A stretch of 60,000 nucleotides of DNA from Vicugna vicugna (taxonomy: Eukaryota): NCBI GenBank assembly GCA_013265495.1, contig MU057809.1, positions 498,001 through 558,000 on the forward strand, read 5' to 3'. The translations under genes were made by a program, and so were the position numbers. Below the pieces are notes generated by a model that saw only the letters and a program-made list of their open reading frames with translations, was not told where the DNA came from and did not search any database. Positions 6,672 to 46,518 of the stretch are shown piece after piece (the stretch's first letter is position 1; the number at the start of each line of letters is the position of its first letter).

Positions 6672-6782
6672 NNNNNNNNNNNNNNNNNNNNNNNNNNNNN
6701 NNNNNNNNNNNNNNNNNNNNNNNNNNNNNNNNNNNNNNNNNNNNNNNNNNNNNNNNNNNNNNNNNNNNNNNNNNNNNNNNNN
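6672..6782. other. Assembly gap (111 N)
   Basis: Run of N. Confidence 1.
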
Positions 6783-42567: not shown

Positions 42568-43867
42568 AGAGGCCACACTGCGGTAGGTCCCCAGCACATA
42601 AGCCTGGGAGGATGGCCTGGGTTGGGGGGTTCTCGGCCAGAGAGTCGGCAAACCAGTCCAGGCCGCCCTCCATGGCCCTCCTCCTAACACGCAGGTCCCA
42701 CCTGGGGCCTCTGCTCAGACCGCCCATGGCGCCCAGCGCCCGAAGAACTGGCCAAGCTGTTCCACCTGGCCAACGCCCTGCACAGCCAGGCCCCACTGAC
42801 AGCTCAGAGCTGCCCATCCCTCTCTGTCCGTGACCCCGCCCTCCAGCCCTGCCAGTGGGGGTCTCGCTGTGAGGGGAGGGCAAGCAGGAGGCCTCTGAGC
42901 TCCTCCACCATCGTTGCTGGGCCAGACACAACCACGTGACCCTATCGAGCCTCAAGGCAACCTGCAACCCATCAGCCACTAAAGGCTCAGAGAGGGCAGG
43001 GCCCTGGCCCAAGGCCACACAGCTGAGCAGCAGAGCCTCGACTGTGAACCCACCTCTGCACCAGGCAGCCGCCCTTTCTGTCCCAGGAATCTCCAGCTGA
43101 GACCCTCCAACACCCCGTGAAGGCAGCGGGACACAGCGAGAGCTCAACGCACTCAGCCAGGGTCTCCCGGCTCCGTCCCTAACCCAGGGGGTCTTGGCTC
43201 CCCCGGACACCAGGTGGGGGAGTGTTGGTGCTTTGCCGTCGCCAGGGGTCCCTCGGGATCAACCTGATGGGCCCCACAGTGGCTGAGACAGCACTAGGAG
43301 TTACAGCTATGGTATCCCCCTCACGCAGTGGGGCTGGGGCCCAGAGGGGAGGTGGGGCTGGGTCTCCTGGCAGCGGGGCGGGGAGCGCTGCACCAGGACT
43401 CGAGTCTGGGCTGCGAGGAGGCTCTGCTCGCCTTGGTCCTTCCCTGCACGACCGCGTCCCTCTCGTCAGAAGTTGGGAAGTGCGGCCAGCCCTGCTTCCT
43501 TGCTGGACACCAGGGGCTGAGCACATAAGGACCAAGAGCCCAGCTGGCCTCCGTCCAAGAGGTCAAGGTCACAGATCTTGACAGAGATCCCCATGTGAGG
43601 CCAACACCACGTGCAGTTTGCAAGACCCACCCCTGGCCCCTGGGTGGGTCCTGGCTCCTGTAAGGTTCACGTCCAGCCTGTCCACGCAGCCAGGCCAGGC
43701 CTAGAATGCATGTCTCAGAGGCCCTGGCCAGGCCCAGAGGGTCGGTACCAGCTCAAGGCCACAGGCACGTGCACGACGGTGCGCAAGCGAGACACGGCTG
43801 AGATGTCTAGGCTGCCCAGCGGCACGTGGGCACAGGGAGAGGGAGCCCAGGCCACGTGGTCAGTTTC

Positions 43868-43873
43868 TTTATT
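43868..43873 (-). terminator. MICALL2: MICALL2 polyadenylation signal AATAAA
   Basis: Plus-strand tttatt lies 80 nt past the stop codon. Confidence 0.8.
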
Positions 43874-43953
43874 GAGGCCACCCAGACCCACCAGAGGAGA
43901 CCCGCACTCCCACCCCCACCTGCAGGCCAGGGTCCTGCACCCCCGCCAGGCAG

Positions 43954-44048
43954 CTACTCGGGGGTCCTGCTCCTGCTCTTCGGGGACCAGATGCTGGACA
44001 AGCGGAACCTGGGCTTCTTCCTCTGGTCGCTGCCCCTCCGCTGCAGGT
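43954..44048 (-). CDS. MICALL2: MICALL2 last exon 17, coding part (DLQRRGSDQRKKPRFRLSSIWSPKSRSRTPE*)
   Basis: Acceptor ccctag|AC after a pyrimidine tract; in frame with exon 16; TAG at 43954-43956; FRLSxIWSPKS C-terminus typical of MICALL2. Confidence 0.9.
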
Positions 44049-44353: not shown

Positions 44354-44400
44354 CCAGTTTCTGGATCATGTTGTGCAGCACTTCGTCCTCCTCCTGCTCC
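44354..44400 (-). CDS. MICALL2: MICALL2 exon 16 (47 bp: EQEEDEVLHNMIQKL)
   Basis: Acceptor tcccag|G, donor TGG|gtaaca. Confidence 0.94.
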
Positions 44401-45080
44401 CTGGGACAGAGCAGGGCTGTGAGGGCCGCACCCCGAGCCCAGGGCCACCTGGCACCAGAGTCACCTGCCCTCTCACCTGCCCACAAGCCACACCCTGGCA
44501 CCGCCCTCCCCCTCCCTGGGCAGGTCTCTGCCATCTCAGCAGTGACTGGGGACCAGAGGGCCTGGGAGGACCTGGGCCCAGGCCCCCTCAAGCTGATAGA
44601 GTGACATGCTTGAGTCTTGACCTGGGCCACTGACCCCGGGAGGCCTGGACAGGTCCCTCGTCTAGACACAGGGACAGGAAAGCTCTGTGGGGACAGTTGC
44701 AAAGCTGGCGGCCCAGTGCAGCACCAGGAGACACACATGCTATGTGTGTCTAAGATGAAAATAAAGGTCAAATCCTGGACCTCGGTTGCACTGGCCGTGG
44801 TGCAAGTACCTAATAGCCATGCATGACCCGTGGCTGCCGTGTGGCACCACCATCACAGGACACCTCCGTCACTGCAGAGGGCCACCAGCCCGTGCTGACC
44901 CTGAGGGTCAGGGAACGTGGTGCACAGGGGGCCTCCTTGGTGGGGGACCTGGAAGGCAGGCTGCATGGCAGGGCCCGCCCTCCACCCCGGCTCCACCCGC
45001 AAAGTACACACAGTGGGCCTTCTCCTGCAAGGGGAAGGTTCTGATCTGAGCCAACCTGGGCCCCCTGCCCTGGGCTCCAC

Positions 45081-45270
45081 CCTCACCTGGCACCCCTCAC
45101 CTGGCGTCCCTCACCTAGGCCCCTCACCTGGCGCCCCCTCACCTGGGCTCCTCACCTGGGCGTCCCTCACCTGGGCCCCTCACCTGGGCCCCTCACCTGG
45201 CACCCCCTCACCTGGCGTCCCTCACCTGGGCCCGCCACTTGGTGCCCCCTCACCTGAGCCCCTCACCTGA
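45081..45270 (-). repeat. Intronic minisatellite, 13-15 bp unit containing CAGGTGAG (13 copies including the real exon-15 donor, plus one degenerate unit)
   Basis: Counted by eye: plus-strand ctcacct at 45082, 45096, 45110, 45123, 45138, 45151, 45166, 45179, 45192, 45207, 45221, 45249 and 45262. Confidence 0.95.
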
Positions 45271-45381
45271 GCCGGTCCTCGTCCAGGAAGTCGACGATGT
45301 TGCTGCGGTCATTGACTGTGTTCACATACTGGTTCAGCAGATCCTGCTCCCGCTGCCGGTCCTGGGGGGACTTCAGACACT
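45267..45381 (-). CDS. MICALL2: MICALL2 exon 15 (115 bp: [39 protein letters not shown])
   Basis: Acceptor ctgcag|AG, donor CAG|gtgagg. Confidence 0.96.
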
Positions 45382-45764
45382 CTGCAGGGACAGCTGCCAT
45401 CAGCTGGGGCTCCGCTGTCCCCACCCTCCTCAGGACACGGTGTCCCCACCCCTCAAGGGTCAGGCTCCTTCACTGAAGGAGAAGGGTAGTGCCTTGGGCA
45501 TCTGGGGCCTCTGGGCACCACTGGCTGAATGAATGAATAAGTGAGTGAATGAACAACGTATCAGAGACTGGGTGTGGCCAGCCCTTCCCCGGGTCATCTC
45601 AGCCACCCTCACAAAACCTGCCCAACGTGGAGATGTGGAAACAGGCTCAGGGCACGGCTGCCCGACTCCCACAGCAGGAGAGGGCGGGGGGGGCTGCCAG
45701 GGCACTCGACCATGGGAACCCACAGCCCCAACAGTCACACCCACACCTCTACCCTGCATACATT

Positions 45765-45986: not shown

Positions 45987-46066
45987 CCACCCCCGGGGCT
46001 GAGCCCCGCCCCCACAGCCTCCACCCCCTGGGGCTGAGCCCCGCCCCCACAGCCTCTACCCCCTGG
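45987..46066. repeat. 34/35-bp tandem duplication in MICALL2 intron 14
   Basis: ccaccccc(t)ggggctgagccccgcccccacagcct x2 plus a partial third copy. Confidence 0.88.
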
Positions 46067-46102
46067 CCAGCCTGGGATCCATGGTGGGCGGGTCGGACCA
46101 AC

Positions 46103-46176
46103 CGGGCTTGGCCATCAGCTGGCGGAGCTCCCCCTCGATGTCCAGCTGCTGCTCCTCCAGGCGCTGGTCCCTGGCC
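46103..46176 (-). CDS. MICALL2: MICALL2 exon 14 (74 bp: ARDQRLEEQQLDIEGELRQLMAKP)
   Basis: Acceptor cggcag|G, weak donor CCG|gttggt; phase 1 exit fits exon 15. Confidence 0.94.
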
Positions 46177-46285
46177 CTGCCGGGGTGACACGGGCGTGAG
46201 GTCCGGCCCATGCACTGGACTCCCCAGCCCCAGCCCAGCGTGCAGGGAAGAGGGGCTCCTGGGGGCCCGCAGGCTGGACCTCTCA

Positions 46286-46393
<108 letters not shown>

Positions 46394-46486: not shown

Positions 46487-46518
46487 NNNNNNNNNNNNNN
46501 NNNNNNNNNNNNNNNNNN
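46487..46518. other. Assembly gap (32 N) in MICALL2 intron 12
   Basis: Run of N within G-rich intronic sequence; does not touch exons. Confidence 1.

Follow-up and report, generated by a model that had tools for sequence, protein, structure and literature searches.

The 3' end of exon 15 of the camelid gene MICALL2 lies in a GC-rich tandem array in which the authentic 5' splice site is followed by twelve decoy copies of itself. The array belongs, as an additional case, to the known donor-reiterating junction minisatellites. We consider it reasonably probable that it is a near-neutral by-product of repeat instability, with the first site in use and the decoys mostly silent, and not a device. 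All positions given below refer to the window, i.e., the whole 60-kb stretch of vicuña DNA that was analysed, in which MICALL2 is read from the minus strand.

Sequence comparison confirmed the gene as the camelid MICALL2. A Pfam scan of the 133 minus-strand ORFs between 41.6 and 60 kb gave matches in three of them, namely a bMERB domain on the ORF that holds exon 15 (45266-45469(-); bMERB_dom, E 4.1e-10), a second and weaker bMERB match at 46059-46373 and, at about 54.9-55.1 kb, a CH domain. Among the matches listed (best 120 of 143 at E <=0.001), the 37-aa peptide of the exon shows 100% identity to at least 8 MICAL-like protein 2 entries, and 7/8 of the identical entries stem from Camelus dromedarius, C. 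ferus, C. bactrianus and Vicugna pacos. Mapping of camelid models by tblastn, with boundaries read from the sequence, places the last exons at 46378-46286, 46178-46104, 45381-45267, 44400-44354 and 44048-43957, which is consistent with the exon number 15; the first coding exon(s) of MICALL2 were not located in the window by this exon map. The best fit is obtained for the alpaca model (875 of 940 aligned residues identical), and Camelus models reach 87-90%, which points to a camelid and probably to the South American branch.

Based on the Pfam match, the peptide identity, the tblastn map and the sequence, exon 15 covers 45267..45381 (minus strand, 115 nt) and ends in phase 2 (CTC AG). It is followed by intron 15 (44401..45266, 866 nt, 3' end ...ctctgtcccag) and the 47-nt exon 16 (44354..44400; sequence and tblastn). 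The last exon (43850..44048) consists of the coding part 44048-43957, the stop TAG at 43956-43954 and a short 3' UTR with an AATAAA at 43873-43868; its 3' end is estimated to lie near 43850. An additional donor-like CAG|GTGAGA is found at 44476 on the minus strand, i.e., 790 nt into intron 15 and 76 nt ahead of the exon 16 acceptor. A small tandem repeat (45987-46066; 35-nt unit, 2.3 copies, 95% matches) is located in the intron that separates the exon ending at 46104 from the one starting at 45381. N-runs of the window (assembly gaps) are located at 46487-46518, inside MICALL2 and 1.2 kb upstream of the array, and at 6672-6782.

On the minus strand, the end of exon 15 reads CTC AG|GTGAGG, with 45267 as last exon base and 45266 as first intron base; in its wider context, the junction is ...GAC GAG GAC CGG CTC AG|GTGAGGGGCTCAG|GTGAGG.... 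The authentic 5' splice site CAG|GTGAGG thereby spans 45261..45269, and its cleavage between 45267/45266 is given by both our script and the 27 protein models discussed below. A script-based search for [C/T]AGGTGAGG identified 13 sites with GT offsets of 0, 13, 41, 55, 70, 83, 96, 111, 124, 139, 152, 166 and 180 nt, where 12/13 are CAGGTGAGG and the one at +152 is TAGGTGAGG. That is, when the authentic donor is set aside, 11/12 decoys are an identical 9-mer and 1/12 is the variant. An earlier note on this DNA, made from the letters alone, had listed 12 extra donors (11 CAG, 1 TAG) at the same offsets, and every position was reproduced by the script. The respective sites lie within 45081..45256 (minus strand) and have their GT starts at 45253, 45225, 45211, 45196, 45183, 45170, 45155, 45142, 45127, 45114 (TAG variant), 45100 and 45086.

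Tandem Repeats Finder (TRF) reports a single array at 45080-45273 with period 13, 14.1 copies and 80% matches, or alternatively with period 28 or 41. Its scores of 212-235 make it the top-scoring tandem repeat among 6 distinct arrays with a score of at least 80 in the 60-kb window. Read on the minus strand, the TRF result and the unit list describe a GC-rich minisatellite (45080..45273) of 14 units with the sense unit CAGGTGAGGG(G)(N2-5)C and a higher-order period of 41-42 nt. Each unit of 13-15 nt is composed of the core CAGGTGAGG, a G-run and a short variable C-rich spacer. One unit of 14 nt, CCAAGTGGCGGGCC (45229..45242, minus strand), has decayed to the core CAA|GTGGCG with its GT at about +28; it deviates from CAG|GTGAGG at 3/9 positions and is the sole unit without a good donor. 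Since the TRF array overlaps the exon end (45267), it extends 6-7 nt into the exon. The exon-final hexamer GCTCAG reappears ahead of the +13 site, and later units carry GCCCAG or similar. The proposal that the exon/intron junction itself had been expanded in tandem is borne out by this overlap and by the recurrence of GCTCAG. Two hallmarks of junction minisatellites are therefore found, i.e., the first monomer straddles the exon-intron boundary and the donor sequence is near-identically reiterated downstream in the intron.

We also compared the frequency of the core with a shuffled background. The 9-mer CAGGTGAGG is observed 17 times in the window compared to 2.69 expected (sd 1.58, largest 8), and 12/17 occurrences fall within 45081-45269. 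The excess is not due to chance, since 0/100 shuffles reach 17. Over the 13 units, the 9-nt core shows 1 change in 117 positions, and the spacers are variable in both sequence and length. Such a near-invariant core with variable spacers could indicate constraint on the core, but it is equally expected from recent 41-42 nt multi-unit duplications combined with CpG decay (GCGC, GTGC and GCAC variants) and G-run slippage. Scoring models that are confined to positions -3 to +6 necessarily assign alike scores to 12/13 donors.

With regard to composition, the array has 52.9% G and 12 G-runs of at least 3 nt within 189 nt. Its CpG observed/expected ratio of 0.25 resembles that of the flanks (0.27-0.46), such that it is not a CpG island. 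No excess of RNA structure was observed in the array (z -0.35; 69/200 shuffles reach the same or better folding), the authentic donor is not conspicuous in its unpaired probability, and no Rfam match was found in the array. RNA structure was therefore rejected as a cause of site choice, given the z of -0.35 and an unremarkable donor accessibility. That is, with no excess structure, no accessibility difference, no Rfam match and a flank-like CpG ratio, the array shows no sign of being a regulatory element.

Donor use was surveyed in 27 protein models taken from the clusters that hold camelid MICALL2, where 25/27 are named camelid models. In 27/27 models, the splice out of exon 15 starts from the first donor, noting that protein annotation is blind to NMD-degraded isoforms. 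Most models (24/27) continue with DEDRLR|EQEEDEVL, which corresponds to the first donor combined with the acceptor at 44400, while 3/27 (alpaca X2, C. ferus X3 and C. dromedarius X3; P0007, P0128, P0130) are spliced to an acceptor located 7 nt into exon 16. None of the 27 protein models, in which NMD isoforms are invisible, ends at DEDRLR. This shows that productive first-site splicing exists and is the annotated norm. Furthermore, the alpaca model is matched by exon 16 at 16/16 residues and by exon 17 at 32/32 residues (the latter by tblastn), such that productive splicing is maintained.

The acceptor used by the three deviating models reads GGAGCAG|GAGGAGG (44393-44400, minus strand; exon start 44393) and leads to DEDRLRRRT[K/R]CCTT followed by a stop; it is annotated in three camelid species. 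As this stop is located 12 nt before the last junction, the respective truncated isoform, missing the very 46 aa discussed next for the decoys, should escape NMD.

Next, we consider the coding consequence of decoy use. When the reading frame of the exon is continued into the intron, ...DFLDEDRLR is followed by the in-frame TGA at 45265-45263 (45263..45265 on the minus strand, intron +2 to +4), which is reached by read-through as well as by any decoy. In full-length camelid models, 46 residues follow DEDRLR. Translation and camelid models thus agree with the earlier reading that any decoy yields AGG TGA, stops the protein at DEDRLR and removes 46 aa. A loss of the bMERB end had been claimed too, and its extent can be specified: the Pfam match comprises residues 746-876 of the 916-aa model, so that a stop after residue 870 costs about 6 domain residues plus a 40-aa tail. 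For a decoy at offset +d, the distance from the TGA to the last junction is (d-4)+47 nt, i.e., by arithmetic 56 nt at +13, as put forward before, and 84-223 nt for the other 11. The hallmark of NMD-coupled poison splicing, a stop located more than 50-55 nt ahead of the final junction, is therefore present as a potential only. We expect decoy products to be unproductive, namely NMD targets at +41 and beyond and borderline at +13.

Among the 120 matches listed, at least 3 non-camelid MICALL2 read-through models/ORFs (P0042, P0043, P0064) end exactly at DEDRLR. Given these, a GTGA donor with in-frame stop is common to other mammals and not a camelid novelty.

Arrays of this type are known from human genes. 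Junction-spanning, donor-reiterating minisatellites are described for F7, IFI6 (6-16), CBS, LMNB2 and PDGFA (PMC1557585) as well as for ABCA7 (PMC5954066). In the intron 7 VNTR of F7 (37-bp unit, 5-9 copies), only the most upstream of the identical sites is used in normal mRNA (Borensztajn et al. 2006, PMC1557585). The F7 pseudo-sites are functional but silent, each being activated only once all upstream ones are destroyed, and site choice was reported unchanged at 8-12 units and by mutation of G triplets (PMC1557585). LMNB2 (100-bp repeat) and PDGFA (81-bp repeat) likewise use the authentic site only, while for the 31-bp VNTR of CBS IVS13 and for IFI6 the two nearest pseudo-sites are used in addition (PMC1557585). 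In IFI6 intron 2, 25 pseudo-sites follow the authentic donor (Turri et al. 1995 via PMC1557585, PMC4526556). The 25-bp VNTR in ABCA7 intron 18 includes the donor of exon 18, and when one unit is retained, the frame is shifted and a PTC arises that leads to NMD (De Roeck et al. 2018, PMC5954066). The alleles of ABCA7 differ in length, from about 12 units up to several kb, and a link has been made to disease risk and to skipping of exon 19 (PMC5954066).

The MICALL2 array shares with F7 that the first monomer spans the exon-intron boundary and that identical pseudo-donors follow the authentic donor (PMC1557585). Both differ, however, in that F7 combines a weak site TGG|gtgggt (consensus value 74) with a 37-bp unit, while MICALL2 shows the strong CAG|GTGAGG in 14 units of 13-15 bp. 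Furthermore, F7 splicing is known from 50 constructs, whereas the MICALL2 array is known here from sequence and protein models. Unlike in F7, the MICALL2 donors are likely spaced closer than the U1 footprint allows. The repeat unit of IFI6 is 12 nt. IFI6 is closest in density and copy number, forming a dense array at the exon-intron border, but its pseudo-site use yields protein isoforms, whereas the MICALL2 decoys all bring the TGA, such that no extended isoform is possible. ABCA7 resembles MICALL2 in that the VNTR directly flanks the exon, includes its splice donor and gives a PTC upon use of a downstream donor; the difference is that length variation and a splicing effect are on record for ABCA7, and none are known for the camelid MICALL2 array. 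CBS, LMNB2 and PDGFA also reiterate the exon-intron junction in the intron but have longer units (31, 100 and 81 bp, respectively; PMC1557585). We found no paper that combines MICALL2 and VNTR, and MICALL2 is unmentioned in the main text of the tandem-repeat splicing catalogue PMC10078293.

Following the reading as a near-neutral junction minisatellite, the exon-15/intron-15 junction would have been duplicated in tandem, by replication slippage or unequal exchange, in a camelid lineage. In consequence, 13 strong and near-identical 5' splice sites are lined up, with the authentic donor at their head. The spliceosome would then take the most upstream donor, as in human genes with such arrays; this donor would be met first in transcription and, together with exon definition, would close the normal 115-nt exon. 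U1 snRNP on the first donor probably occludes the +13 site sterically, judging from the general size of the particle. The unit after +13 is decayed, which leaves +41 as the next intact decoy, and any decoy leak would be expected mainly at the nearest units. While anatomy, distances and annotated donor use are shown directly, we infer that the array is neutral, why the first site is chosen, that +13 is occluded and how large a leak would be. The earlier note had offered as a fallback that interspersed G-runs may enforce the proximal site. Its first half is in line with F7, LMNB2 and PDGFA, which behave so (PMC1557585). As to its second half, G-triplet mutation in F7 was without effect (PMC1557585), such that G-runs are not a demonstrated cause of site choice.

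Some findings count against silent decoys. When all sites are occupied in vitro, the intron-proximal 5' splice site is preferred (PMC3413131), and since all 13 donors are strong, this rule predicts use of distal decoys here. The ABCA7 VNTR shows that such arrays can alter splicing in a length-dependent manner (PMC5954066). Both bear on the reading of the array as a poison-splicing or dosage element, in which decoy use leads via the TGA to NMD or to a DEDRLR-truncated protein and the array length tunes MICALL2 output. We regard this as rather unlikely, although several lines of evidence are compatible with it: 12/12 decoys share the strong core (11 as identical 9-mer), every decoy includes the TGA and 11/12 of them place the stop 84-223 nt before the last junction. 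Published cases point the same way, i.e., one-unit retention in ABCA7 gives a PTC and VNTR length is linked to splicing changes (PMC5954066), IFI6 and CBS constitutively use their two nearest pseudo-sites (PMC1557585), and when strong sites are duplicated, splicing in vitro prefers the downstream copy (PMC3413131). On the other hand, 0/27 protein models show decoy use, though NMD isoforms are not annotated as proteins, and site choice in F7 was unaltered by copy number with silent pseudo-sites (PMC1557585). A more specific version is a length-dependent rheostat, in which 13 packed strong donors would draw U1 and lead a fraction of the transcripts, set by the copy number, to decoys; these transcripts would be destroyed by NMD and hence be absent from annotation. 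We judge this version unlikely. The poison-splicing or U1-decoy function raised by the earlier note gains no support from our data, and copy-number-tunable poison splicing is not a new idea, since it is in print for ABCA7 (PMC5954066).

The decoys might also act without being cleaved. As an intronic splicing enhancer, U1 sites and G-runs would recruit U1 snRNP and/or hnRNP H/F, thereby strengthening exon 15 definition or suppressing premature 3'-end processing. The array provides 12 G-runs of at least 3 nt in 189 nt and 13 U1-complementary sites for this, and G triplets as well as a U1-binding intronic enhancer have been described to modulate 5' splice-site choice (McCullough & Berget 1997, 2000, cited in PMC1557585). 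We nevertheless consider an enhancer quite improbable, because F7 splicing was reported as unchanged by G-triplet mutation (PMC1557585) and the authentic donor is already strong with no evident need for help. An assembly artefact, i.e., a mis-assembled array or array length, is highly improbable: while the assembly is fragmented (12,405 contigs) and an N-run is found 1.2 kb away inside MICALL2, the array consists of unique 31-mers and 30-mers throughout, which renders it assemblable, the assembly has a single copy of the region and the units follow an orderly higher-order pattern. Finally, the thirteen CAGGTG motifs, which we take to be E2-boxes for ZEB, SNAI or class-I bHLH factors with a presumable link to EMT factors, might form a DNA-level element, i.e., an intronic silencer or enhancer of an epithelial-junction gene. 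The motif count speaks for such a cluster, but CAGGTG simply belongs to the duplicated 5' splice-site consensus and CpG depletion is like that of the surrounding gene body, so that we give this idea hardly any credence.

If the decoys are silent, as in the near-neutral reading that we favour, the array represents one more natural example of its class and provides a compact test substrate, with 13 near-identical strong donors at 13-15-nt spacing. Here, two published rules oppose each other, namely the most upstream site first (F7 minigenes; PMC1557585) versus the intron-proximal site when all are occupied (in vitro; PMC3413131). If a length-dependent leak were true, MICALL2 would be the second junction VNTR that sets gene dose after ABCA7, in a non-model mammal, and a rheostat would make it the counterpart of the ABCA7 VNTR in an epithelial junction recycling gene. 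Either way, no new kind of mechanism is opened.

We also screened the 2.03-Gb assembly for tandem CAGGTRAG arrays, which gave 90 matches at about 25 loci on 23 contigs compared to 2 matches for the reversed control. GC-rich minisatellites of the tandem CAGGTRAG type thus recur across this genome. When the pattern is made stricter by including the G-run, only the MICALL2 array and one other locus in the assembly are left. The about 24 other loci show at least 3 tandem CAGGTRAG copies at 3-10-nt spacing; examples are G000:C2870:384679-385413, C8097:692141-692425, C74:42591-42706 and 99702-99781, and C719:1028867-1028973. One tandem CAGGTRAG locus consists of about 45 units of the 16-nt repeat CAGGTGAGCTGTCCCT. 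We inspected 9 of the about 24 loci as candidate exon-junction arrays and accepted none of them as such, given that the first unit is either embedded in a more extended degenerate minisatellite or unjudgeable without annotation.

A dispersed degenerate 16-nt minisatellite (sense approximately CCCAGGTGAGGGCAGG or CCAGGAGAGGGCAGG) is present at several loci, i.e., L001/L014 (G000:C182:79138-82178) and L021-L023, and it accounts for the partial matches of 68-78% to the MICALL2 array. An origin of the array from a dispersed repeat or transposon was rejected, since the region is single-copy and resembles other minisatellites only by these partial matches of 68-78%. A search of metagenome contigs for orthologous introns, with the C-terminal 90 aa of a camelid model as query, matched 341 pattern stretches, none of which was confirmed. 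The plus-strand ORF across the array (44908-45270), used as query for length variants, gave 348 word-sharing candidates, none of which reached a score.

Beyond camelids, a read-through model from Pteropus vampyrus (P0044) extends into the intron by 52 aa (DEDRLRWALRAG...YWQVRGQVTPCQGLRAQV). Towards its end, it shows QV motifs that would be compatible with CAGGTG repeats at about 130-170 nt into the bat intron, which may be taken as an indirect hint that donor-like repeats of this intron are not confined to camelids.
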